Shown here in pieces: positions 3,378 through 49,499 of a stretch of DNA of 49,499 bases. The position numbers were made by a program, and so were the translations under genes. The stretch lies in assembly GCA_949127975.1 (NCBI GenBank), contig CASBRB010000196.1, forward strand, positions 1 through 49,499. Reading direction: 5' to 3'. Each line of letters opens with the position of its first letter. Positions within the stretch are counted from its first letter, which is position 1. The stretch is from Oscillatoriales cyanobacterium PMM_0019 (GTDB taxonomy: Bacteria > Cyanobacteriota > Cyanobacteriia > Cyanobacteriales > CASBRB01). The notes beneath the pieces are model-generated. The model had not been told where the DNA came from. It was given only the letters and a program-made list of their open reading frames with translations, and made no database searches.

Positions 3378-3549
3378 AAAACTTTTCGCTCGAAAGCCCT
3401 TGGGAATCTTTAGGGAATGCTCGGCTGTTTTGGGCTGTTGACTATCGAGCGCAATGGCTTCCTATCAAGTCGCTCGAGCGCAAGACGAGACCTCGTTCAC
3501 ATCCCCCCAGTGATTAACATCACCATAAACGACCTGTCAAGTCACTGTC

Positions 3550-3582
3550 ACATTAATTTACAATTCGTTACATTAATTTACA
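3550..3582. repeat. Direct repeat ACATTAATTTACA x2, period 20 bp
   Basis: Seen at 3550-3562 and 3570-3582 in a noncoding stretch. The minus strand reads TGTAAATTAATGT. Confidence 0.5.
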
Positions 3583-8777: not shown

Positions 8778-10283
8778 CTAACCTTTCCTCTTCATTTGCC
8801 AGTAGTCTTTCAAGGGGTTGTAGGTTCGCTGCCGGAACTCATTTTTGGTTTTAGCAGCTGGGATTTGTAAAGCTCCATACGGGAATTCTGTACGATCAAT
8901 TTCATAGTGCAAATGCGAATTATCTGCTCCTGTGTTACCAGTATTTGCAACTACTTGCCCTGCTGTTACCGACTTATTTAAAGAAACTAAAATCTTGCTC
9001 AGATGCATATACATATGATTGATGCCATTAGCATCTTGGATGGTTAATAAACCCCAGTTTTTATCATCAGCTACGACCACTTTGCCAGACACAAGAGTTT
9101 TGACTGGAGTTCCCAATGGCGCTGCAATATCTATTCCTCCGTGATACCCCTTAGCACCTCCGGTTTCCCTGTAGTAATCATCTGATATGTAAGCACCAGT
9201 GATAGGAAAGTTTTGACCAAATAAGTCATTGGTTAAATCTCTGTAGATTTTTCCAATATCAGAATTTGGATTTGTGTTGATATAGTCTAAAGCTTTAGCA
9301 CTGTTGATTTGATTTTCCCAATCAGTGTCAGACCAAGGTATGAAATTATCAAAATAACCAACTTTTTGTGGGTTCAACCAATTTGCTGATGCAGTGAACG
9401 TTCCAACCTTTCCACCATACGTACCAGTATCAAACAAAGGTCTGTTATTCGAGTCATATACGACAACATTTCCATCTGGCTGAATAGCGAAATAATCACC
9501 AGAATGACCCCATGTATTAGTCGCCCATACTGCTTTACCGTGGTCGTAAAGAACAACATTTCCATCTGTTTGTACTGCCAACAAGTCAGCACCTGTTCCA
9601 AATGTTCCAGTCGCCCAAATTGCTTTACCCTGTGGATTATACAGCACTAAATTTCCATCCGGCTGAAATATGAATTTGTAGTTAGTATAAGTAATCCATT
9701 GTTGACCACGGGAAAAATTTAAGGTGGTTGTGTTTTGCCTAATAATAATCTTAGGTCCACTAACAGGAACATAAGCACTACTTAGCCAACGTTGGTTAGG
9801 ATTAGTAGAATCACAAGTCCATAAATGAACAAATTCCCCATTCTTTCTGGTAGGAGTATCTATACAAAGATTTGTTCCAGCCAGCTTAATTAAATAGTAA
9901 CCATTTTGAAGATCGAGCAAATTCCAATTTTGATCGGCATCTGTAGCATCACATTTCCATACATTTATTGGTTTTTCTTGTTGCTGTATATAATGTGCAT
10001 TCAAACACTTGCCCTGATTAGCCGTGCTGGTAGAACGGTGTTTTAAAAGAAAGCTATCTTTTTGATTACCTGGCATCCTGTCAAATTGTTGATCGAAATC
10101 GCTATCATTGCGGGTATAAATTGCCAACTTGGGCTCATTATCAAGTTTCCCGAATAAGTTATTGGTGTTCAAAGCCATGTTATCTATAGAAAAGGTTTCA
10201 GCGGCTTGAGCCACTGCCGTACTGATAATGGCGGATGAGACAACTGTTGCTAGTGTCAGTTTGTGCAAAATTTTATTAAACAT
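8778..10283 (-). CDS. Secreted M23 metallopeptidase fused to ricin-B (QxW) and bulb-type (B-)lectin domains
   Basis: QNW and QRW ricin repeats. Three QxDGNxVxY repeats (QPDGNLVLY, QTDGNVVLY, QPDGNVVVY). M23 motifs YHGGIDI and NSHLHYE. Signal-peptide-like start at ATG 10283; the track ORF extends to 10373. Confidence 0.85.
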   Translation of the reverse strand: MFNKILHKLTLATVVSSAIISTAVAQAAETFSIDNMALNTNNLFGKLDNEPKLAIYTRNDSDFDQQFDRMPGNQKDSFLLKHRSTSTANQGKCLNAHYIQQQEKPINVWKCDATDADQNWNLLDLQNGYYLIKLAGTNLCIDTPTRKNGEFVHLWTCDSTNPNQRWLSSAYVPVSGPKIIIRQNTTTLNFSRGQQWITYTNYKFIFQPDGNLVLYNPQGKAIWATGTFGTGADLLAVQTDGNVVLYDHGKAVWATNTWGHSGDYFAIQPDGNVVVYDSNNRPLFDTGTYGGKVGTFTASANWLNPQKVGYFDNFIPWSDTDWENQINSAKALDYINTNPNSDIGKIYRDLTNDLFGQNFPITGAYISDDYYRETGGAKGYHGGIDIAAPLGTPVKTLVSGKVVVADDKNWGLLTIQDANGINHMYMHLSKILVSLNKSVTAGQVVANTGNTGADNSHLHYEIDRTEFPYGALQIPAAKTKNEFRQRTYNPLKDYWQMKRKG

Positions 10284-10390
10284 AAGTAGATGAGTCCTTT
10301 CAACTAATGCTTTGGTGAATTGCAAAGTTCCAATGGAGCGATTGCCGTAGTGTACTCGATTAAACTCTCTCACTTTTTCGCATTGCTCCC

Positions 10391-10499
10391 ATTGTGAACC
10401 TCTATTAGTACTCAGGCGCTAGTCAGCCTGTTTTACGCAGACAGCAGTTTTTTTTACAAAACTTTACAAAAAGCTGCTGCTTGGTTGGGAAGCTCAATT
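10391..10499 (-). promoter_or_regulatory. Conserved ~100-nt upstream element, copy 1 (upstream of the lectin-M23 gene)
   Basis: Near-identical to 12887-12978 and 14355-14457. Confidence 0.7.
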
Positions 10500-10942: not shown

Positions 10943-11071
10943 ATGGATTTTCATCTAGATTCTTTATTAAAGCTACCCAATGTAACGGTTTTTACGTGTT
11001 ATCAAAAAGAAGGATTCATTATTCTTAGAGCGATCGCAACCCTTATATGTTCAAATGGTTGGGTTAACTAG
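10943..11071 (+). mobile_element. N-terminal stub of an ISL3-family transposase gene
   Basis: MDFHLDSLLKLPNVTVFTCYQKEGFIIL matches the recalled ISL3 N-terminal pattern (LL-LP-VTV). Truncated after about 30 codons. Confidence 0.4.
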
Positions 11072-11083
11072 GTCAACCCAACC
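11057..11083. repeat. GGTTGGGTT-N9-AACCCAACC hairpin repeat
   Basis: Inverted repeat read directly. Related copies at 14523-14550 and 39681-39710. Confidence 0.7.
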
Positions 11084-11109
11084 TACAGGCTATTCGTTAG
11101 ACAATCTAG

Positions 11110-11209: not shown

Positions 11210-11581
11210 TTAATTATTTAATATGTTCATCAATCGCAATTGACAACCATTATTATATCCAAATAGTCGAACGGTCTTGTTGCTGCTAATTGCGGTTAGT
11301 AATGTAGCAAGCACAGCTTTTACATTGTCCTTCCGATCGCTATCAGTTGCCCCTTGACCATTCCATGTTAACACAGTGCCTTTAGGGCAAGAGCCTGCAC
11401 CTCCATCTATCATTACTGTTATACTGTTTGGCATGTATGTAGGTTCCACGACTAAGAGTTTTGCATCAACAACCCAGTCGAAGCGCGGGTCAGCCAAAGC
11501 AGGAGTCACGTTGAGAAGAGTAACTATCGGAACGAGAGCTAAAAGTTTACGAAACATAACGAATCTCCTTGATTTTGACAA
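11210..11581 (-). CDS. Small secreted two-Cys protein, paralog A
   Basis: The signal peptide MSKSRRFVMFRKLLALVPIVTLLNVTPALA is shared with ORF 11896-12240. The mature part is divergent. Confidence 0.7.
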   Translation of the reverse strand: MSKSRRFVMFRKLLALVPIVTLLNVTPALADPRFDWVVDAKLLVVEPTYMPNSITVMIDGGAGSCPKGTVLTWNGQGATDSDRKDNVKAVLATLLTAISSNKTVRLFGYNNGCQLRLMNILNN

Positions 11582-11643
11582 TTTTGGAACAAATCTTGCC
11601 TTTTAGTTAGAAAGCAACAGTTGAAGAATTGGAGCAATAGAAT
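11489..11643 (-). repeat. 155-bp segmental duplicate of 12149-12303 (offset exactly 660 bp)
   Basis: Covers the signal-peptide codons, the RBS region and a copy of the last ~38 nt of the M23 gene at 12262. Confidence 0.9.
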
Positions 11644-11704
11644 GGGCAAACGCATCGAACTTTGCCCTGCTGTTGATTGTAACTCGTCAGACAGCCTGAA
11701 TTTA

Positions 11705-11895: not shown

Positions 11896-12240
11896 CTATG
11901 ATTGACCTCTTACATAAAATGCATCTATAACACAAGATCCATTGTCTAAGGTGTACCAAATTCCCATAGGTCTTGATGTGGCTTTTGCATACAGAATCAT
12001 GGCAACGAACCGATTTCTATCGGCTTCAGTAAAAGTTTTGGGTAGACTAATATTGCCATTTAAACAAGGACTGGAAGTCCACCAGACTGTTACATCACTT
12101 CCTTTGTAGTTTATTAATTGCCAACCGCTTGGCACTTCCCATAAAGTGTTAGCCAAAGCTGGAGCCACGTTGAGAAGAGTAACTATCGGAACGAGAGCTA
12201 GAAGTCTACGAAGCATAATGAATCTCCTTGATTTTGACAA
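11896..12240 (-). CDS. Small secreted two-Cys protein, paralog B
   Basis: Signal peptide MSKSRRFIMLRRLLALVPIVTLLNVAPALA. Lies 21 nt downstream of the M23 peptidase gene. Confidence 0.7.
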   Translation of the reverse strand: MSKSRRFIMLRRLLALVPIVTLLNVAPALANTLWEVPSGWQLINYKGSDVTVWWTSSPCLNGNISLPKTFTEADRNRFVAMILYAKATSRPMGIWYTLDNGSCVIDAFYVRGQS

Positions 12241-12303
12241 TTTTGGAACAAATCTTGCCTTTTAGTTAGAAAGCAACAGTTGAAGTATTGGAGCAATAGA
12301 ATT
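12149..12303 (-). repeat. 155-bp segmental duplicate of 11489-11643
   Basis: About 93% identity, read directly. Confidence 0.9.
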
Positions 12304-12864
12304 GGCTATATTCCCATAATTCTGAGAATAAATTGAAGACCAATCAGTAATTCCTTCATCAAATACCACAGATTGATAGTGGTTACCATACGGTTCATCT
12401 GATTTTTGGAAATGAAGATGTCTTCCGGTCGAGCAACCAGAAGCACCTATTATTCCAAGCTTTGTGCCTTGGGGAACAAGTTGATTGATGCCCACTTGAA
12501 AGGTGTTGTCTTTCAAGTGAGCATAGATAGTATAGGTATTGTCCGCATGCTTTATGACAACACGGTTGCCAAAGCCAGAAGGCAAGGTGGGATATCCTGG
12601 ACACCCGCCTGATGAATCATATCCAACTGCAACAACAGTTCCTGCTTGTGAAGCGCGAGCATAAATACCATCACCTGGAGGTACAAAATCGTATCCTCTG
12701 TGAGTTATAGTGCCATTAATGGCATACTCTAATCCGCGAGACATTGAAAACTTGACTTCTGGATCAAATGGCAGCTTATCTCCAGCCATCGCTTTTTCAG
12801 CGAAAACTAGACAAATAGCGATTAATCCAGTCAATCCTGCTACAGCACCCAATTTTTTCAGCAT
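12262..12864 (-). CDS. Secreted M23 family metallopeptidase (catalytic domain only)
   Basis: Signal peptide. HRGYDF (HxxxD) and GRHLHFQ (HxH) motifs. Confidence 0.85.
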   Translation of the reverse strand: MLKKLGAVAGLTGLIAICLVFAEKAMAGDKLPFDPEVKFSMSRGLEYAINGTITHRGYDFVPPGDGIYARASQAGTVVAVGYDSSGGCPGYPTLPSGFGNRVVIKHADNTYTIYAHLKDNTFQVGINQLVPQGTKLGIIGASGCSTGRHLHFQKSDEPYGNHYQSVVFDEGITDWSSIYSQNYGNIANSIAPILQLLLSN

Positions 12865-12886: not shown

Positions 12887-12978
12887 GGTAATTGTGAACC
12901 TCTATTAGTACTCAGGCGCTAGTCAGCCAGTTTTACGCAGGCAGCAACTTTTTTTACAAAACTTTACAAAAAGCTGCT
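12887..12978 (-). promoter_or_regulatory. Conserved upstream element, copy 2
   Basis: Near-identical to copies at 10391 and 14355. Ends 22 nt before ATG 12864. Confidence 0.7.
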
Positions 12979-13150
12979 TTTCTACCTGTGGTGTATGAGT
13001 TGGCAGTATGCCTTTATCATTTGGTCTTAACTCTAAATGTACGTGTGGCCCAGTAGCTGAGCCTGTTTGTCTACATTTCCCAATTTCCTGCCCTCTTTTT
13101 ACAAAACCGCTAACATTACTTTGCACGTTTAAATTGTTCCATTGATTGTA
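12979..13150 (-). pseudogene. C-terminal fragment of another M23 peptidase gene
   Basis: VKRGQEIGKCRQTGSATGPHVHLEL is the M23 HxH region. There is no N-terminal half, and the fragment abuts conserved element copy 2. Confidence 0.65.
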
Positions 13151-13179
13151 ACGCCCAAAATGTGGGTTGTCGGAAATGC

Positions 13180-13204
13180 CAACTGTGAAAAATTTTCACA
13201 GTTG
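13180..13204 (-). terminator. Perfect 12-bp palindrome CAACTGTGAAAA-A-TTTTCACAGTTG just downstream of the M23-tectonin gene
   Basis: Read directly. Lies 22 nt after the stop at 13226. Confidence 0.5.
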
Positions 13205-13225: not shown

Positions 13226-14338
13226 TTAGTTACAACCTATTACCCAAGTGGAGCCATTAGCCCCTATTCCAATATCGTTTGCACAACCTGGAAGGTGCTG
13301 CCAGCCATTCCCCATCCATTTAAAAATAGCTCCATCCAAGTTATTAACTACCCAAGGTTTACCATCGGGGGCAACGGCTATCCCAACAGCACCACCACCA
13401 ACTGCAGTCCATCCTGAACCATTCCAATACTCTATTCCATATCCACCAAGAGTTGGATGACAATCTATTACCCAAGTGGAGCCATTAGCCCCTATTCCAA
13501 TATCTTTTGCACAACCTGGAATGTGCTGCCAGCCATTCCCCATCCATTTAAAAATAGCTCCATCTAAGCCATTAACTACCCAAGCTTTACCATCGGGGGC
13601 AACGGCTATCCTAACAGCATCACCACCACTTCCAGTCCATCCTGAACCATTCCAATAATATATTCCATATCCACCAGGGTGTGGATACTGTCTTAAAATA
13701 TTTTGGGATTTGTAGGATTTATCATAGTAAACTTGTCCATCTTTACAACTAGAATTGTTATCGCACTCATCAAAGTAAATTGGAGTAGTTTTTCTGTCTG
13801 ATGGACGATTTCCTAACTTTTGTTGTAAATATCGATCTCTGTCTGTCAGTTCTGAATCACTTTTTTGTAGCTCTAAATGTAAATGTGTACCCTTGCTATG
13901 ACCAGTATTTCCACATTGACCAATTACTTGTCCTTGTTTGACAAACCCCTCAACAGGGCTAGGATCTTTTAGATGAGCATAAAGGGAAATCCTTCCATTA
14001 GCGTGCTGGATTCTGATAAAGTTACCTTTCCATGCATCGTTAGTTACTTTTTGGACGACATTGCCATCCATAATTGCAATAATGTCATAATTATTTACAC
14101 CACAGCCAAAATCAATTGCATATTGTTGTAGTTCTCCAGCACCACTTGTGTCACCATCATGTAAATAATTTGTACCATCTATAGAATCCACACCTGACTG
14201 AGTTACTTGAATAGGTGTATCCTCTGGGTGAAATGGCAGTTTGTATCCTTGCCCTGCTTCTACTTTTGCAATTCCAACAACTAAAGACGAGATAGTCGCT
14301 GCTCCTACTACGATCTTTTGCCAAGTTTTACTCAACAT
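13226..14338 (-). CDS. Secreted M23 metallopeptidase fused to two tectonin/tachylectin-like beta-propeller repeats
   Basis: Signal peptide. GNTGHSKGTHLHLEL. Two 76-aa repeats GGYGIxYWNGSGWT...VAPDGKxWVVN...IFKWMGNGWQH.PGCA.DIGIGANGSTWVI. Confidence 0.8.
   Translation of the reverse strand: MLSKTWQKIVVGAATISSLVVGIAKVEAGQGYKLPFHPEDTPIQVTQSGVDSIDGTNYLHDGDTSGAGELQQYAIDFGCGVNNYDIIAIMDGNVVQKVTNDAWKGNFIRIQHANGRISLYAHLKDPSPVEGFVKQGQVIGQCGNTGHSKGTHLHLELQKSDSELTDRDRYLQQKLGNRPSDRKTTPIYFDECDNNSSCKDGQVYYDKSYKSQNILRQYPHPGGYGIYYWNGSGWTGSGGDAVRIAVAPDGKAWVVNGLDGAIFKWMGNGWQHIPGCAKDIGIGANGSTWVIDCHPTLGGYGIEYWNGSGWTAVGGGAVGIAVAPDGKPWVVNNLDGAIFKWMGNGWQHLPGCANDIGIGANGSTWVIGCN
13229..13684 (-). repeat. Tandem 228-bp duplication encoding the tectonin-like repeats
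   Basis: The mirrored antisense ORFs at 13248 and 13476 are offset by exactly 228 nt. Confidence 0.85.
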
Positions 14339-14354
14339 GATTATATAATCCCTT

Positions 14355-14457
14355 GGTAATTGTGAACCTCTATTAGTACTCAGGCGCTAGTCAACCTGTT
14401 TTACGCAGGCAGCAGTTTTTTTTACAAAACTTTACAAAAAGCTACTGATTGGTTGGG
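14355..14457 (-). promoter_or_regulatory. Conserved upstream element, copy 3. Boxes: TGTAAA 14436-14431, TGTAAA 14426-14421, TGCGTAAAAC 14407-14398, GCCTGAG 14385-14379
   Basis: Read on the minus strand. Ends 16 nt before ATG 14338. Confidence 0.7.
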
Positions 14458-14522
14458 TAACTGGGCAGCTGAGGTAGTAGCAGCTACGCCAGCGTATTAG
14501 AGTATTAGCGGCAATCGACTAA

Positions 14523-14550
14523 GTTGGGTTTCGTGCCTCAACCTAACCTA
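14523..14550. repeat. GTTGGGTT-N9-AACCTAAC hairpin repeat (imperfect)
   Basis: Same family as 11057 and 39681. Confidence 0.6.
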
Positions 14551-14621
14551 CCAACTGCTATTGTTATGGTTCCTGCCAGCGCTACTGCCCCCACGTCATC
14601 TATCGTGTGGGAACTCCGTCG

Positions 14622-14692
14622 TGTAAATTTTTGTAACAAATCTTGAGTTTTGCGTAAAACTTTGCAAACCAAGCCTGAGACATAATTAGAGG
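14622..14692 (+). promoter_or_regulatory. Diverged plus-strand copy of the composite element upstream of the sigma-like gene. Boxes: TGTAAA 14622-14627, TGTAAC 14632-14637, TGCGTAAAAC 14651-14660, GCCTGAG 14673-14679
   Basis: Box order and spacings (N4, N13, N12) are identical to copy 3, although the spacer sequences differ. Confidence 0.65.
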
Positions 14693-15421: not shown

Positions 15422-16354
15422 ATGACTCAAGTCAATCAAGTAATAGAGAAGTTAAAATTTTCAGTTGCTATACCTTCAGAAGCGTATGGGATGGCAGAAA
15501 AGTTTTCTAGGCAACAGCATCATCCTCAAAAAGCTAAACAAGTTTACCTAAACACTTTAGCTGTGTATGCAGGTAACTACTTCATAGAGTATCTGGAATT
15601 GGAGACAAATTTGTCAGGTAGTGACAGTTGGAATCCGGTGATGCAGACACTTATGGACACTGCCGATCTAGAAGTCAAGAACTTTGGTAAGCTAGAGTTT
15701 CGTCCGGTATTAGTAGAGTCCCAGTCCCAGGTAGTACACATTCCGTTAGAAGTTTGGGAAGACCGAATTGGCTATGTTGCAGTACAGATCGATCGCTCGC
15801 GCTCTTTAGCAACCCTGTTAGGGTTTGTCAAAACGGTAGTGACAGAAGAAATAGCGATCGACCAATTCCAACCCTTGGAAGATTTGTTAGATTTGCTGAA
15901 TCCCGTTCAGCAACCGGTGCAACTGCGGCAATGGTTACAGAATATTTTTGAACCAGAGTGGCAAGCATTTGAAGCTCTGCTTAAACCAGAACTAAGGAAT
16001 CCAGCCTATGCTACTAGAAAAGTGAGTAAAGAAGCTTTAATTCGAGCAAAGTTTATCGATCTGGAGATGCATCTGAAGGGACAAGCAGCCACTCTCTCGA
16101 TTGGTCTTACCCCAGATGATAAGCTAATGGAAATTCGCGTGCGGTTACATCCTGCACTAACTGCGAAGTATTTGCCCCCTAACCTAAAACTGGCTTTACT
16201 CACTCAGGCGGGGAGAGTGATCCGGGAGGTAGAATCGAGAAACCAAAATACCTGCATTCAACTCGAACCATTTAAGTATGAGATGGGGAGAAGCTTTCGT
16301 ATCCGGGTAGCTCTTGGTGATGTCAGCGTTATGGAAGATTTCTTTGCTGTCTGA
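15422..16354 (+). CDS. DUF1822 family protein
   Basis: KAKQVYLNTLAVYAGNYFIEYLELETNLSGSDSW...ADLEVKNFGKLEFRPVL matches the recalled DUF1822 signature. Starts 23 nt after the sigma-like gene. Confidence 0.75.
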   Translation: MTQVNQVIEKLKFSVAIPSEAYGMAEKFSRQQHHPQKAKQVYLNTLAVYAGNYFIEYLELETNLSGSDSWNPVMQTLMDTADLEVKNFGKLEFRPVLVESQSQVVHIPLEVWEDRIGYVAVQIDRSRSLATLLGFVKTVVTEEIAIDQFQPLEDLLDLLNPVQQPVQLRQWLQNIFEPEWQAFEALLKPELRNPAYATRKVSKEALIRAKFIDLEMHLKGQAATLSIGLTPDDKLMEIRVRLHPALTAKYLPPNLKLALLTQAGRVIREVESRNQNTCIQLEPFKYEMGRSFRIRVALGDVSVMEDFFAV

Positions 16355-16373: not shown

Positions 16374-19220
16374 ATGACTAAGCCATATTACTTCCGTTTC
16401 ATTAGGAGATGTTTAGGTTCCTTTGTTATACTGTACCTAACGCAGTTTAGCAAACTCAGTAGATCGAAAAGTTTTCCAGAAACTTTAAGGCGCAGGTATG
16501 TTGGGATTAAGGCCACCATCCGTCAGACTCCCCAAGGCATCAACTTCTTGAGGCATAGGGTTGTAGATCAATTTCTACGAGAGCGAACTGTCGCTCGCTC
16601 TCGTAGACCTCAGTTAAATGGGCTGAAAACTACTTTATCTCGTCAACTTACAAAAGTTTTAGATCTACTGAAAGGCTCTCGTAGATTGTTCGCAGGATTT
16701 ACCCGTCAACATCGCGAAAGACAGAGAATGACACGTATGCAACCAGGATTAAAAACAGTTATCTTGTGCTTAGGACGAGGGGATTTGCAGAAAGGCTGTC
16801 CGGATATCAGCGTTGAGCTTTTGGCGTCTGACAATCATACATTGATGAAAAAAATCTGCTGCTTACCCCCTTCGTTAGAACTGGTTAAACTTTATAGGTG
16901 TTGGGAGCTTTTCTACTGGGATTACTATGAAGGTCGGGGGTTTGATTTCCGTAGTGTAACGAATGAAGACGAAGAATACCCCGATGAGATCCTGAATGAA
17001 GACGATGAAGACCCCGATGAGATCCTTAATGAAGACGATGAAGACCCCGATGAGATTGCAGCAGCGGGGATCACCCATATTTCTGAGTACTCTGGGGCTG
17101 AACTAAGCGAACTAGATGAAAAATTAAAAGAGTGTTTCAATAAATGGCTAAGTTGTGAGGAATTTACTAAAATTGAAAAACAATTACGCGATCGATTGGG
17201 ATTATCTGAAAATATTATAATTGTCGTTGAAACTGAAGACGAGCAAATACGGAAACTTCCTTGGAGGCAGTGGAAGTTTGTTGAAGACCACCCTAAAGCA
17301 GGCGTGACTATCAGTGGTTTAACCCGTGAAGACTTGGATAAGTCGTCCCTACCAGAAGAAAAAAATGCAGTTAATATTTTATGTATTATCGGTAATAATA
17401 AAAATATTGATACAACTGATGATATAAATAGTATCAAAAAGATTCAGGGCGTATCAACAACTTTTTTATACCAGCCTTCATCATCAAAATTAAAAGACCA
17501 ACTTTGGGAAAACAGCTATGATTATTTATTGTTTTCTGGTCATAGTTCCAGCAAGGCAGGCGGAGTGATTAAGATAAACGATCGAGAAAGCTTGACAATC
17601 AAGGATTTAAGGGCAGCCCTGAAAAAAGCAATTGAAAATGGATTAAAGTTAGCAATTTTTAATTCTTGTGATGGATTGAAATTGGCAAGTGACTTAGCTG
17701 ATTTAAATATTCCGGCAGTGATTGTCATGCGAGATCCGGTGCCAGACAAAGTTGCACAAAATTTTTTGAACTATTTTATACAAGATTTTTTTAGTGGTAA
17801 TTCCCTAGATGCTTCTGTAAGGAAAGCAGCAGAAAGATTGCAATTAATGGAAAAAGAATTTCCTTGTGCATCGGGGTTGCCAACGCTCGTTTGGAACCGT
17901 GCCGAAGAGCTTCCGCGCCCAAGAACGCCAATCTGGGGTCGTCTTCGTCTAGTGCTTTGTGCAAGTTTACTTGTAACTAGCTTATTGATGTGGGGACGGC
18001 ATCAGGGCAAGCTACAAACATGGGAATTGCAGGCTTTTGACTACTCAATGCTAATGCAGTTGCAACAAGTTGAAAAGCCCGACAATCGGATCTTGGTTGT
18101 CAGAATAACTAAAGACGACATTAATGATCAGCCCCAAAAGGATCGAGGACTAGCATCGCTATCAGAACTCACACTGGAAACTCTCTTAAAGAAACTAGAG
18201 GAAGAGGATCATAAACCGCGAGTCATTGGTTTGGATATTTATCGCCCATTGCCGGTAAACTCCCGCTATATAAACTTAAAAGCTAATTTCCAAAGGAACG
18301 ATCGCCTGATTGTTGTATGCAAAGGTAACACTCCTCAAGATCCAGGTGCTTCACCCCCCCCTGAGGTTCCGCAAAAGCGCATAGGCTTTAGTGATTTTGT
18401 GCTTGATGAGGACAATATTATCCGTCGCCATCTTTTGTTGATGGAGCCTGTAGCCCCTTGTCAGGCAATGGACATAAATAAGAATGACAATATGGAAGCC
18501 TTCAGTGTCAAGTTAGCACTGAGTTATTTGAAAAAACAGGGTATTACACGCCAAGATGGTAAAAACGACGAATTTCTCAAGATTGGCGACGTTATTTTCA
18601 AAGACCTAGAAATCGGCTTTGGCGGCTACCAGCGTTCAGATTCATATAAAGATATGGACGGTCACCAGGTAATGCTGAATTACCGTCATTACCGTGACTA
18701 TCTCAACGACATTGCCAAATCATTAACTCTAAAAGAAGTTTTGAATAATCAGTTTAATACTGCTGATGTAAGAGATCGGATCGTTCTCATAGGTGGTGAT
18801 GTTGAAACTGATTTGTACTATACACCCTTTAGTAATCAGAAAAAGCCCCCTGAGCCAATACCAGGAGTATTCATTCATGCCCAGATGGTGAGCCATATTC
18901 TCAGTGTAGTTCTAAAGGAGCGCCCCTTAATTTGGGCTTGGTCTTGGTGGGGTGATACTCTATGGGTGTGGAGTTGGTCTTTAATAGGGGGTGTGTTGGT
19001 TTGGCGAGTGCGATCGCTATTACGCCTCGGACTTGCTACAGGAGCTGCACTTGTCATTTTGAATGGAATCTGCTTTGTCTTCTTAACGCAAGGCGGTTGG
19101 ATACCACTTGTTCCTTCAGCAATAGCACTGTTAACTACTGCTGGAAGTATAGTAGTTTACAGTGCCTTTTTTTACAACGATTTTGGTAGACATTTAAACC
19201 TTAAATTATCACTGAGATGA
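16374..19220 (+). CDS. Membrane protein with N-terminal CHAT-like (caspase-fold His/Cys) domain and C-terminal CHASE2 sensor domain
   Basis: LLFSGHSS...LAIFNSCDG His/Cys dyad context. TM segment LVLCASLLVTSLLMWG. CHASE2-like ILVVRITKDD...RVIGLDIY. Three or more C-terminal TM helices. Confidence 0.7.
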   Translation: MTKPYYFRFIRRCLGSFVILYLTQFSKLSRSKSFPETLRRRYVGIKATIRQTPQGINFLRHRVVDQFLRERTVARSRRPQLNGLKTTLSRQLTKVLDLLKGSRRLFAGFTRQHRERQRMTRMQPGLKTVILCLGRGDLQKGCPDISVELLASDNHTLMKKICCLPPSLELVKLYRCWELFYWDYYEGRGFDFRSVTNEDEEYPDEILNEDDEDPDEILNEDDEDPDEIAAAGITHISEYSGAELSELDEKLKECFNKWLSCEEFTKIEKQLRDRLGLSENIIIVVETEDEQIRKLPWRQWKFVEDHPKAGVTISGLTREDLDKSSLPEEKNAVNILCIIGNNKNIDTTDDINSIKKIQGVSTTFLYQPSSSKLKDQLWENSYDYLLFSGHSSSKAGGVIKINDRESLTIKDLRAALKKAIENGLKLAIFNSCDGLKLASDLADLNIPAVIVMRDPVPDKVAQNFLNYFIQDFFSGNSLDASVRKAAERLQLMEKEFPCASGLPTLVWNRAEELPRPRTPIWGRLRLVLCASLLVTSLLMWGRHQGKLQTWELQAFDYSMLMQLQQVEKPDNRILVVRITKDDINDQPQKDRGLASLSELTLETLLKKLEEEDHKPRVIGLDIYRPLPVNSRYINLKANFQRNDRLIVVCKGNTPQDPGASPPPEVPQKRIGFSDFVLDEDNIIRRHLLLMEPVAPCQAMDINKNDNMEAFSVKLALSYLKKQGITRQDGKNDEFLKIGDVIFKDLEIGFGGYQRSDSYKDMDGHQVMLNYRHYRDYLNDIAKSLTLKEVLNNQFNTADVRDRIVLIGGDVETDLYYTPFSNQKKPPEPIPGVFIHAQMVSHILSVVLKERPLIWAWSWWGDTLWVWSWSLIGGVLVWRVRSLLRLGLATGAALVILNGICFVFLTQGGWIPLVPSAIALLTTAGSIVVYSAFFYNDFGRHLNLKLSLR
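16962..17060 (+). repeat. In-frame 33-nt x3 tandem repeat encoding acidic NEDxEx PDEIL units
   Basis: Units at 16962, 16995 and 17028, read directly. Confidence 0.9.
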
Positions 19221-20047
19221 AGTTACATTTCCAGAACTTAAAACTTACCGTTGCTGTCACCTTGGCATTCGTTAGTTTGGTAAACACTGTGCCAGCGGTT
19301 CAGAGCGAGACAGATCCTGTGCCTCCTCCAGATGTTCTGCTTTCACCTACTCAAAAGAGCGATCGCTTAATCTTCACACAGCTAGAAGCTTCCAGACGCG
19401 GAGCACCTGGTCGTCGCAGAGGGGGAGGAACCTTTGGTGGTGGTAATCAGTGCAAAGGTGTGACAATACCTCTCACTGCCTTAGTACCTGGTGAGGAGAA
19501 AGTCGGCAGTTTAGACCTAAAAGCCGAAAGCGTTCGGGGATTAACCGCAGAGGGATATCCAACTTTTTGGTTTTTTGTTCCCTATGGGGAAGCGTCTAAA
19601 CTAGACGCTGAGTTAGTCTTGGTAAATGACCAGAATAAACCAGTTTACCAAGAACTTGTTCCGCTAACTGGAACCCCTGGTATAGTGAAAATTTCATCAA
19701 AACGGATGTCAGCACCGTTAGAAGTTGGCAAGGATTATCGGTGGTCATTTTCAGTTATTTGTAACCCGCAAGAGTCATCTGCAAATTTTTATGTGCAAGG
19801 GCGGGTAAAAAGGATCGAGCCAAGTCCCAATCTTACAAGGGAGTTAAAGACAGCAACACCAGAGCAAAAAGTTTTTCTTTATGCCCAAGAAGGCTTGTGG
19901 TATGAAACTGTAACCACTATCAGAGAAGAACTTAGTTCGACTAATCCCCAAAAAGCCACATTACTAATGACTAACCTTTTGCAGTCAGTAGGTTTGGATG
20001 ACATCGCTCAACAGCCATTTGTTCCATGTTGCACGCACAAAAAATAA
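19217..20047 (+). CDS. DUF928 domain-containing secreted protein
   Basis: Signal peptide. RRGAPGRRRGGGT and YPTFWFFVPY signatures. The ATGA start overlaps the stop of the CHASE2 gene. Confidence 0.75.
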   Translation: MKLHFQNLKLTVAVTLAFVSLVNTVPAVQSETDPVPPPDVLLSPTQKSDRLIFTQLEASRRGAPGRRRGGGTFGGGNQCKGVTIPLTALVPGEEKVGSLDLKAESVRGLTAEGYPTFWFFVPYGEASKLDAELVLVNDQNKPVYQELVPLTGTPGIVKISSKRMSAPLEVGKDYRWSFSVICNPQESSANFYVQGRVKRIEPSPNLTRELKTATPEQKVFLYAQEGLWYETVTTIREELSSTNPQKATLLMTNLLQSVGLDDIAQQPFVPCCTHKK

Positions 20048-26267: not shown

Positions 26268-26565
26268 TTCAGTAATTGCACCCTTAGAAAATTGCTAAAT
26301 TTTTTAACCCGAGTGGATAATTTAAGCCCTTGCAGCACGCTTGACGCTTGTAGGCTCAAGTGTCCTCAAGAGGATCGCTGGTAGTAATCTATTTGCTGCC
26401 ACAACAATTAATCATTAATATAATATCTCTTTAGGGGGACAAAAAAAAAATAAATCCAATTTATATAAAACTTTACAATAAATTGGTGTATTAAGTGTTT
26501 TTGGATATAAAACTGGGCGCATAAGCTGTGAGAGTCACTTCGCCTTTACCACAACTAGATGTGTA

Positions 26566-39202: not shown

Positions 39203-39680
39203 TTACACAACCTCCTGTATAAATATCCTGCGGCGGCGGCATGACTTAACATCTCCAGTCACCAATACCATCCCAGGCAATGTCTAGTTCTCTTTGGTCA
39301 AATTTAGGCATAGCATCCGCTACTCTATACATCAAGTCCGTGCCACCTATCTCGCGGGCGTCTCTCTCCAAAATACCTTAATCAGCCTGATATAGTCCTG
39401 AAATCCATCATCGGATTTACATCCACCTCCCTCCATAGAGTATATATGGGAGCAACGCGAAAAAGTGAGAGGTCGTACCCGTACCGGGGCCGGAGGCAAT
39501 CGTTTCGCTCCCTCCAAGCGATGCCTGCGGCGGGCTGCGCCTACGCTCTATGAAGTAGGAGCAGCCTTCATTACCATAATTAAGGGTTTATTACAACCTT
39601 CTGAAGATTTGTTAAGCAAACTTGATAGTTATATAGCTATAAACAGTTAATATTCGACCAACCTACAATGCTGCCACTAA

Positions 39681-39710
39681 TAGGTTGGGTAAAGTACCTC
39701 AACCCAACCT
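39681..39710. repeat. TAGGTTGGGT-N11-ACCCAACCT hairpin flanked by 17-nt direct repeats CCAACCT(A/C)CAATGCTGC
   Basis: Read directly. The direct repeats lie at about 39655 and 39704. Confidence 0.65.
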
Positions 39711-39750
39711 CCAATGCTGCTAATAAATGGCAAAAACAAGATTAATTATG

Positions 39751-42888: not shown

Positions 42889-43573
42889 GCGATCGCTACG
42901 CCGAAGGATCGCTAATTCGATGGATAAAGGTGGACAATAGGTGTATAAGCGTACATGAGGGTGTTGGAAACCACTACCGCCTCGGGATTACTTAATGCCG
43001 GGTGCTTTTGTGATGTACTTTCGCCCAGACAATTATGGGCTGACATCTTTTATCCTGTACGCATAGTGGTTGTTTTCTCCCTTTCGGGGTAATGTTTTCC
43101 GTCCCTAAGAGGGACCGCGTAGCGTGTACGGCAATGTTAGAGAGGCTTGTCATGCTGAAGACACTAGCTTAAACCTTATACACCTGTTTAATCTCCAGCG
43201 ATAGAGCCACAAACTGGAAAGCATCTGCGGGTATCATGACCTTTCTAACGTAGTCCTGTTACAGACTTAGCCTGGCTACCTCTTCAACAGAAGTACTGGT
43301 TGTCCAGCATTGTCCATTGATTGGTGGATAGCCACAACTAAACGATAAACCTATCTATTATAACAGCAACAACAATGCTGGATTTTTGTGCTGTCTATCA
43401 TAAGTGATTGCGTAAAACTTGTCATAAAACTTAACAAAACTTTTTATTAAGTAGGGATCTTTATTCCGGTTTTTGTGCCAAGATCTAAATTAAGAACTTT
43501 GGGGTAATAAATCCAAAAAAAATTTGGGGATGCTTTCACATCTCCCCAAAGTTCATTTTGTTTTTATTTTTAT

Positions 43574-49270: not shown

Positions 49271-49499
49271 ATGACTGACAACAACAATAATTGCAAAACT
49301 TTTGTTGAATGCTGTTCAACAAGTCCACTTATTGAACAGGATTCAACAAGCCCACTTATTGAACAGGATTCAACAAGCCCACTTATTGAACAGGATTCAA
49401 CAAGCCCACTTATTGAACAGGATTCAACAAGTCCACTTATTGAACAGGATTCAACAAGTCCACTTATTGAACAGGATTCAACAAGTCCACTTATTGAAC
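49271..49499 (+). CDS. Possible 5'-partial ORF encoding STSPLIEQD nonapeptide repeats (alternative reading of the 27-bp repeat array)
   Basis: ATG 49271 is open to the window edge. No convincing RBS. Confidence 0.25.
   Translation, partial: MTDNNNNCKTFVECCSTSPLIEQDSTSPLIEQDSTSPLIEQDSTSPLIEQDSTSPLIEQDSTSPLIEQDSTSPLIE
49315..49499. repeat. 27-bp tandem repeat, 6.8 copies, running off the window edge. Each unit contains the palindrome TTGAACAGGATTCAA
   Basis: Unit starts at 49315, 49342, 49369, 49396, 49423, 49450 and 49477. A single C/T variable position has the pattern T,C,C,C,T,T,T. Confidence 0.95.

Follow-up and report, generated by a model that had tools for sequence, protein, structure and literature searches.

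A conserved four-box DNA motif links a divergent ECF-type sigma factor gene to M23 peptidase genes in Oscillatoriales cyanobacterium PMM_0019: a probable autoregulated promoter module

What connects three M23 peptidase genes with a nearby gene for a sigma-like protein in Oscillatoriales cyanobacterium PMM_0019? The genes lie on contig CASBRB010000196.1 (assembly GCA_949127975.1), of which positions 1 to 49,499 were analysed; this stretch of 49,499 nucleotides (nt) is called the window throughout. A first-pass annotation, made from the letters alone, had pointed to a block of short boxes at set distances upstream of all four genes and had read it as the cis-element of a regulon in which the sigma-like protein, or a partner regulator, drives its own operon and the lytic enzymes. 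The motif is real, conserved and tightly spaced, and it is linked to operons that encode the sigma factor and a DUF1822 protein as well as to genes for predicted extracellular proteins. We propose, with a probability of roughly 0.7, that it represents the cognate and positively autoregulated promoter module of a system made up of the sigma factor, the DUF1822 protein and a CHAT-CHASE2 protein, with the M23 peptidases as its local regulon.

The motif comprises four boxes (A to D) and occurs four times in the window (Table 1). Searching for the combined box A and box B pattern TGTAAA-N4-TGTAAM-N13-TGCGTAAAAC gave four exact matches in the 49.5 kb and none in 100 shuffles, and TGCGTAAAAC-N12-GCCTGAG was matched at the same four sites. 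TAGAGG follows every copy, the length being different by one base in copy 4. A profile hidden Markov model (HMM) of the whole motif, built from 42 copies, recovered the four copies only (E 6e-13 to 7e-12). Copies 1 to 3, which are linked to the M23 genes, had been described as sharing a nearly identical block of about 95 nt; this was confirmed, the common block measuring 104 nt with 84-94% identity, spacers included. Alignment of the four upstream regions further bore out that copy 4, on the opposite strand, has the boxes and distances of the others but not their spacer sequences, apart from the one-base difference before TAGAGG. Copies 3 and 4 are divergent and their box A ends are 185 nt apart. 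Moreover, a partial match had been noted at 26461-26481. An exact box A is indeed present there, whereas boxes B to D are absent and the site was not picked up by the whole-motif profile. With one mismatch allowed, about 0.6 matches to box A are expected in the window. Whether this site belongs to the regulon is therefore uncertain, box A being the only part of the motif that links the adjoining operon of two-partner secretion (TPS), filamentous haemagglutinin (FHA) and CHAT genes to it.

To follow the motif beyond this locus, the pattern TAAAKTTTTRTA-N{14,20}-TGSRTAAAA-N{20,32}-TAGAGG was scanned, with no protein information used, against one genome per species from 185,579 bacterial and archaeal species. 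All 43 stretches obtained were cyanobacterial. Their carriers are nearly all filamentous (Microcoleus, Tychonema, Kamptonema, Nostoc, Tolypothrix, Richelia, Scytonematopsis), with one metagenome-assembled genome labelled Chroococcales. Gap 1 of the matches was 15-18 nt long (mode 16; 14-20 allowed) and gap 2 25-28 nt (mode 26; 20-32 allowed). About 24 of the genome matches sit 13-134 nt 5' of an open reading frame (ORF) recognised by the HMM of the sigma family, which is followed by a DUF1822 gene. A second scan, of metagenomes, demanded boxes A and B only and gave 68 loci in which the downstream part was unbiased by the pattern. Here, 12 of 61 matches were located upstream of a sigma-like gene and DUF1822. 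In 38 of 59 copies selected in this way CnGA was found exactly 14 nt after box B, and in 48 of 59 at 12-16 nt (4.3 in shuffles), while ATAGRR was present downstream in 32 of 59 (0.7 in shuffles). Counted from box B, positions 15-31 read C-n-G-A-T-A-g-A-T-A-A-A-T-A-G-A-G, most of them being kept in 60-83% of copies.

From 98 distinct copies the consensus (T)GTAAAGTTTTGTAAC - N14 - TGC(A/G)TAAAA - N14 - C-n-G-A-T-A-g-A-T-A-A-A-T-A-G-A-G-G was derived. Box A contains GTAAC in 73% and GTAAA in 24% of them, and box B is TGCATAAAA in 57, TGCGTAAAA in 37 and TGGATAAAA in 4. The gap between boxes A and B is 13 nt in 12 copies, 14 nt in 56 and 15 nt in 30, and that between boxes B and C is 14 nt in 76 of 98; across genomes the box spacing is fixed to ±1-2 nt rather than absolutely, and the spacer sequences vary. 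A pattern for boxes B to D gave 93 matches, and a strict box A was missing from 7 of them: in 6 it deviates by a single mismatch, and in the remaining one no box A could be recognised. That both gaps are constant to ±1 nt and that boxes A to D are nearly inseparable argues for one nucleoprotein complex spanning the ~72-bp module. In genome and metagenome loci the motif is always intergenic and faces the gene that follows it; divergent pairs arranged back to back, as in the window, were found in other genomes too. No match to the box A and B pattern was obtained in 2.9 million viral contigs. The earlier preference for a functional site over a recent duplication is strongly supported by the same boxes at ±1 spacing between unrelated spacers in many filamentous cyanobacteria.

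The linkage was also approached from the protein side. A tblastn search of plasmids with the sigma-like protein returned 13 records, all cyanobacterial, so that these loci were picked by the protein alone and blind to the motif. Loci L001-L003 of this set carry the motif before the sigma gene. The full form, TGTAAATTTTTGTAAM-N15/16-TGGATAAAA...CCGATAG...TAGAGGA, was found in Fischerella NIES-4106, Tolypothrix PCC 7712 and Nostoc UHCC 0926, whose proteins are 31-36% identical to the sigma-like protein of the window. The motif is degraded or diverged in Aulosira (30%) and Nostoc flagelliforme (33% for a truncated copy and 26% for a second copy), and it was not recognisable in Pseudanabaena, Acaryochloris and two Nostoc loci with tandem sigma genes (26-28%). 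In the metagenome locus P0002 (50%) one motif precedes the sigma gene itself and a second one precedes the divergent neighbour, as in the window. The motif stands before the sigma gene in the window and in the genome, metagenome and plasmid loci given above. The two tandem Nostoc loci (L006 8983-10642 and L010 8980-10639) lie on plasmids beside NACHT and metallophosphoesterase genes, and their sigma factors may form a separate branch of the family that recognises other promoters. Between sigma clades, both the box B sequence and the spacing vary. Within the window, the sigma copy and the three M23 copies have non-modal features in common, namely CGT in box B and gap lengths of 13 and 15 nt. 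These shared features and the differences between clades are consistent with the local sigma factor as reader, without proving it.

Profile comparisons indicate that the sigma-like protein is a divergent sigma factor of the extracytoplasmic function (ECF) type, with an N-terminal extension of ~55 residues and sigma2 and sigma4 domains only. An exhaustive search collected 458 representative clusters of the family. Among 40 aligned members, Sigma70_r2 was weakly matched in 14 and Sigma70_r4_2 in 25, and the eight best PDB hits of the family profile were all ECF sigma factors (E 0.005-0.08). When the 40-member profile was aligned with Escherichia coli RpoE by hhalign, the alignment spanned sigma2 to sigma4 with a probability of 94.4% (E 8.7e-8) and agreed with the PDB match 1or7. 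Several homologues are labelled sigma-70 family in RefSeq, and the AlphaFold2 (AF2) model of the protein is confident (pLDDT 90). As judged from alignment with homologues, translation most likely starts at ATG 14721 rather than at GTG 14709.

Table 1. Motif copies in the window and genes of the surrounding cluster.
Feature	Positions	Strand	Exact box A-box B match	Remarks
Motif copy 4	14622-14692	+	14622-14660	upstream of sigma-like gene; ends 28 nt before ATG 14721; box A TGTAAATTTTTGTAAC 14622-14637, box B TGCGTAAAAC 14651-14660, box C within GCCTGAG 14673-14679, box D TAGAGG 14687-14692
Motif copy 3	14367-14436	-	14398-14436	upstream of M23 + tectonin gene; TAGAGG end to ATG 14338, 28 nt
Motif copy 2	12899-12968	-	12930-12968	upstream of small M23 gene; TAGAGG end to ATG 12864, 34 nt
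Motif copy 1	10399-10468	-	10430-10468	upstream of ricin-lectin + M23 gene; TAGAGG end to likely ATG 10283, 115 nt
Isolated exact box A, GTAAAGTTTTATA	26464-26476	-		upstream of TPS/FHA-CHAT operon
Divergent ECF-type sigma factor, 225 amino acids	14721-15398	+		presumed reader of the motif
DUF1822 protein	15422-16354	+		directly after sigma gene; candidate anti-sigma factor or partner
CHAT (caspase-like) + CHASE2 sensor-protease	16374-19220	+		candidate signal input
DUF928 protein	19217-20047	+		conserved cluster member
M23 peptidase + tectonin repeats	13226-14338	-		signal-peptide-like N-terminus; predicted target of copy 3
Small M23 peptidase	12262-12864	-		signal-peptide-like N-terminus; predicted target of copy 2
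Ricin-lectin + M23 peptidase	8778-10283	-		signal-peptide-like N-terminus; predicted target of copy 1

The genes around the motif are listed in Table 1. DUF1822 follows the sigma gene in essentially every locus; the sigma family is always paired with it and is usually found near CHAT/caspase-CHASE2, DUF928 and TPS genes. In the window a TPR/CHAT-type protein and a TPS/FHA protein are encoded on the other strand of the same neighbourhood. The three M23 proteins are mutually 30-38% identical or less, in the catalytic domain only, and two of them carry lectin-type domains (ricin and tectonin). PADLOC matched no defence-system model in the cluster except for a generic TPR match, and megablast of the locus against plasmids gave no near relative. 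Two small paralogous secreted proteins are encoded directly downstream of the small M23 gene (11210-11581 and 11896-12240, both on the minus strand). They have near-identical signal peptides, one of them has a weak DUF5992 match, and their upstream and 5' regions share a block of 159 nt with 94% identity (11489-11647 and 12148-12306). Both genes are probably part of the operon of the small M23 gene, and their DUF5992-like products are candidates for accessory or immunity proteins. In addition, a truncated C-terminal M23 catalytic fragment (~12985-13200, minus strand; 48% identical to the tectonin-M23 protein) runs straight into box A of copy 2, which points to a past rearrangement or duplication in the M23 array.

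Elsewhere, most motif copies that are not located before a sigma gene precede genes of predicted extracellular proteins. Genes that bear the motif encode a trypsin-like protease, a very large DUF4347/DUF11 protein, an RTX protein with a reprolysin-like (M12-like) domain, proteins combining RTX with CAP, RTX with PPC, ChW with M23 and DUF4114 with Big_13, a DUF3466 protein, an M50-like protein and a TPS/FHA protein. With the ChW + M23 target the link to M23 peptidases recurs independently of the window. In locus L037 the motif stands before a gene for a cyanobacterial TRADD-N-associated protein with two transmembrane segments, which is followed by a sigma gene. A DUF6232 membrane protein gene lies behind tandem arrays of the motif. 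In genomes of the Microcoleus/Tychonema type such arrays repeat the whole motif 2-4 times at intervals of 155-212 nt ahead of DUF6232 or TPR genes (L011 7454-7956, L013, L016, L024, L036 3540-3960, L045, L078, L096 and L119), and behind every copy there is a conserved stretch of ~100 nt that contains a small hairpin (ACCGC...GCGGT). Stacked promoters and sigma-dependent small RNAs are both conceivable readings of these arrays. The autoregulated regulon tied to the sigma-like gene has thus gained comparative support from a DNA-only scan that lands on sigma/DUF1822 operons, from plasmid loci chosen without regard to the motif, from the ECF-like nature of the protein and from the M23 target found independently, along with other predicted extracellular hydrolases that bear the motif.

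How might such a module work? We infer that the sigma factor reads the motif and where transcription would start; an anti-sigma role of DUF1822 and a role of CHAT/CHASE2 as input are suggested by gene order and by PMC8195603. In the proposed mechanism the sigma factor would be let go by its partner, presumably DUF1822, and RNA polymerase carrying it would then initiate at the module. Release would possibly be driven by the CHAT protease on a signal sensed by CHASE2. One motif copy would drive the operon of sigma, DUF1822, CHAT/CHASE2 and DUF928 and would thereby provide positive feedback. Other copies would drive genes of predicted extracellular enzymes, in the window those of three M23 peptidoglycan peptidases, with lectin-type domains for targeting.

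Two assignments of the promoter elements may be considered. In assignment (i), GTAAC in the second half of box A would serve as -35 and CRTA in box B as -10 element, separated by a 16-nt spacer in the canonical ECF geometry 'AAC...CGT'; the GTAAAGTTTT half of box A would be an upstream extension, and the block formed by boxes C and D would lie at about +12 to +30 and have some second function. In assignment (ii), TTGCRTA of box B would be the -35 and nCnGA of box C the -10 element, again with a 16-nt spacer, transcription would start inside TAGAGG, and box A would be an upstream (UP-like or accessory) element. Over the 98 copies AAC was present in 72, CGT in 37 and CAT in 57, with spacers of 15-17 nt around the geometry GTAAC-N16-CRTA, and TTGCRTA-N16-nCnGA also fits. 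What the conserved block CnGATAgATAAATAGAGG further downstream would do depends on which assignment holds. Spacing and the pattern of conservation are ambiguous between the two, and so are insertions and deletions: the gap between boxes B and C is 5 nt shorter in L051 and 6 nt longer in the Aulosira sigma copy. The UP-element consensus matches box A partially and is positionally off. On precedent we prefer assignment (i), by a modest margin, with (ii) nearly as good. A scan with the canonical sigma-70 promoter consensus (TTGACA-N16-18-TATAAT-like) gave no site at the boxes, and no TAnnnT was found at a fixed offset.

Several observations weigh against the promoter module proposed here. Taken alone, the sigma-like protein of the window has no Pfam or NCBIfam match, and a whole-chain Foldseek search of its AF2 model, a two-domain helical protein, against the PDB returned no sigma factor and nothing significant. 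AAC is found in only 73% of box A and CGT in only 38% of box B in the 98 copies, and a four-box module of ~72 bp exceeds the normal length of an ECF promoter. The two -35/-10 assignments exclude each other although both fit, which leaves at least one conserved block without explanation. Many loci were found via the motif itself, so that invariance at the pattern positions is partly by construction, and co-inheritance of promoter and gene could yield the correlations with sigma clades without co-evolution. Finally, box A of the window also fits the consensus of HLR1, the site of the OmpR-type regulator RpaB, and another regulator could therefore bind.

The last point leads to the alternative that survives best, although we consider it unlikely: the boxes would be bound, as operator or activator sites, by a separate regulator, for instance RpaB at an HLR1-like site, transcription would be due to a group-2 or housekeeping sigma factor acting at a weak AT-rich -10 element near ATAAAT or CATAAT just upstream of AGAGG, and the sigma-like gene would merely be a member of the regulon. 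HLR1 has the consensus (G/T)TTACA(T/A)(T/A)-N2-repeat. Box A of copies 1-3 reads TTTACAAA-AC-TTTACAAA in reverse complement, a perfect match with two direct TTACA-type repeats at a 10-bp period. GTAAA, GTAAC, RTAAA and GATA are repeated in phase on one face of the helix, with TA steps at about -8, 2, 24 and 47, and directly before AGAGG there is CATAAT in copy 4 and AATAAT or ATAAAT in several copies elsewhere. However, only 51 of 98 copies (52%) have the T before GTAAA on which HLR1 depends, indicating that the second HLR1 repeat is not under selection; the RpaB operator was accordingly rejected in spite of the match in the window. RpaB is present throughout cyanobacteria, yet the motif occurs only where this sigma family does, preferentially directly upstream of its genes, and always, unlike HLR1, in company with boxes B to D. 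A -10 element of the form TAnnnT has no fixed conserved position, and no other regulator gene is consistently tied to the motif. By eye, sites for NtcA (GTA-N8-TAC) and a LexA-like site (AGTACTAAT, copies 1-3) seemed to be present, and these likenesses are absent in other genomes. Between convergent ORFs of the window (3548-3582, minus strand) TGTAA is repeated four times at intervals of exactly 10 bp, TGTAAATTAATGTAACGAATTGTAAATTAATGTGA; these repeats resemble box A or HLR1 half-sites and lack boxes B to D.

Could the conserved sequence act in RNA instead? All or part of it, especially the C/D block CnGAUAgAUAAAUAGAGG, would then be a 5'-leader element common to the mRNAs of the regulon, for instance one that binds a protein or the ribosome or that determines stability. 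With boxes A and B as promoter, every transcript would contain the C/D block at the position stated for assignment (i). This block is purine-rich and apparently unstructured, has a Shine-Dalgarno-like GAGG at its end and is kept before unrelated genes. Against this, Rfam has no family at the motif, the only match at gathering score in the window being HEARO at another place, and RNAalifold detected no conserved base pairs in 42 copies; both null results rule out a structured cis-regulatory RNA as main explanation. No start codon is conserved at Shine-Dalgarno distance, the true starts being 13 to >400 nt away. Furthermore, a distance from box B that is constant to ±1 nt would rather be expected of a constraint on DNA, and boxes A and B are left unaccounted for. 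An action at the RNA level thus appears clearly improbable. Another idea is that the copies have no regulatory function and were left behind by a small mobile repeat or a recent duplication at the locus. The similarity of copies 1-3 including their spacers and the rearranged locus with its M23 fragment next to copy 2 might be cited for it. This idea is effectively refuted by cross-genome conservation, since between genomes and across many genera only the boxes are kept while spacers diverge, the motif always faces a downstream gene from intergenic DNA, its carriers among the 185,579 species genomes scanned are all cyanobacteria, the box A and B pattern has no match in viral contigs, and the flanking M23 coding sequences are only ~30% identical.

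The promoter module proposed here was compared with known systems. In Bacillus subtilis the SigW promoter is TGAAAC-N16-CGTA and the SigX promoter TGTAAC-N17-CGAC. As in these autoregulated ECF systems, the putative reader consists of sigma2 and sigma4 only, the motif stands before its own operon, a candidate partner gene follows immediately, GTAAC-N16-C(G/A)TA, if assignment (i) holds, shows the 'AAC...CGT' hallmark and its spacing, and the predicted regulon is rich in envelope or extracellular functions. Different from SigW and SigX are the four-box architecture, the phased upstream GTAAAGTTTT half-site and the conserved block of 18 nt located 14 nt past the putative -10. In contrast to classical ECF systems, the sigma factor is too divergent for Pfam thresholds and the putative partner is DUF1822, described as TPR-like, and not ZAS or another recognised anti-sigma factor. 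The closest parallel within cyanobacteria is sigma-HetZ, a divergent ECF-derived sigma factor with the inhibitor PatU3 and the DIF1 motif TCCGGA-N16-17-TGNA-N7-9-T (Hu et al., PNAS 2026, PMC13342950). Both systems comprise a divergent ECF-derived sigma factor of filamentous cyanobacteria, an adjacent (here candidate) inhibitor gene and positive feedback, which is proposed in our case, and in both a cis motif was recognisable genome-wide before its reader was known. The DIF1 geometry of a -35 hexamer, 16-17 nt and a short -10 (TGNA) is likewise similar. The box sequences are unrelated, with no TCCGGA in our motif, and the output of HetZ is heterocyst development as opposed to extracellular hydrolases. 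HetZ is also described as having three insertion domains (PMC13342950).

Neighbourhoods of an ECF sigma factor, DUF1822 and EACC2-caspase (CHAT) were described from protein architectures by Kaur, Burroughs, Iyer and Aravind (eLife 2021, PMC8195603), who predicted the sigma factor to regulate 'a multiplicity of genes' and described no cis-element, promoter or regulon. The cluster studied here agrees with this arrangement in its sigma, DUF1822 and CHAT genes, the CHAT protein having a variable C-terminal sensor (here CHASE2), and so does the TRADD-N-associated gene of L037. The motif and its predicted extracellular-hydrolase targets are new information beyond that work. A search of full-text literature on DUF1822, DUF928, PF08852 and EACC2 yielded no description of the motif. 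It therefore appears to be undescribed so far. With its four boxes it is unusually long, and it would define the promoter and the regulon of a family of ECF-like sigma factors that is still uncharacterised.

Some further repeats were observed in the window. A 26-nt sequence, ATGGGAGCAAYGCGAAAAAGTGAGAG, just downstream of copy 1 (10367-10392, minus strand) recurs 29 kb away with 96% identity (39446-39471, plus strand). Three copies of a short palindrome (GGTTGGGT...ACCCAACCT family), which is probably a dispersed repeat of cyanobacteria, are present (14522-14552, 11057-11087 and 39683-39713), the first of them between the two divergent motif copies. The HEARO match is a full-length RNA (43119-43332, minus strand; RF02033, 114.8 bits, E 4e-23), an HNH-endonuclease-associated RNA of IS605-type or IscB-like elements. 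A 27-nt unit, TTATTGAACAGGATTCAACAAGCCCAC, is repeated in tandem at 49275-49499, with at least 8 copies of 90-100% identity, and the array runs off the end of the window. Because it is without spacers, its appearance is that of iterons or a satellite rather than of clustered regularly interspaced short palindromic repeats (CRISPR).

Neighbourhoods of sigma, DUF1822 and CHAT/caspase genes are widespread in multicellular cyanobacteria, and an apoptosis- or immunity-like role has been proposed for them from domain architecture alone. A motif that is easily scanned turns this proposal into a testable regulon prediction, much as the DIF1 motif was recently found to be the promoter of the divergent sigma factor HetZ. 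The targets found are dominated by predicted extracellular hydrolases, including M23 peptidases that cut peptidoglycan, together with TPS exoproteins, and the motif offers a promoter-reporter reagent for asking what CHASE2/CHAT senses. A bolder version, which we regard as doubtful, would be a switch with two checkpoints. Here, an ECF-like sigma promoter (boxes A and B) would be joined, at a fixed distance, to the conserved (GATA)n-AGAGG block, and a second component of the CHAT/caspase-DUF1822 system would recognise this block, either in DNA or in RNA, where it would make up the first 30 nt. Promoter and block together would control a 'lytic secretome' comprising TPS exoproteins and proteases of the M23, trypsin-like and RTX types. 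Such a secretome might serve programmed cell lysis, filament fragmentation or antagonism between filaments in multicellular cyanobacteria and, if the two-checkpoint switch were true, a bacterial caspase-linked conflict system would for the first time have a defined transcriptional output.

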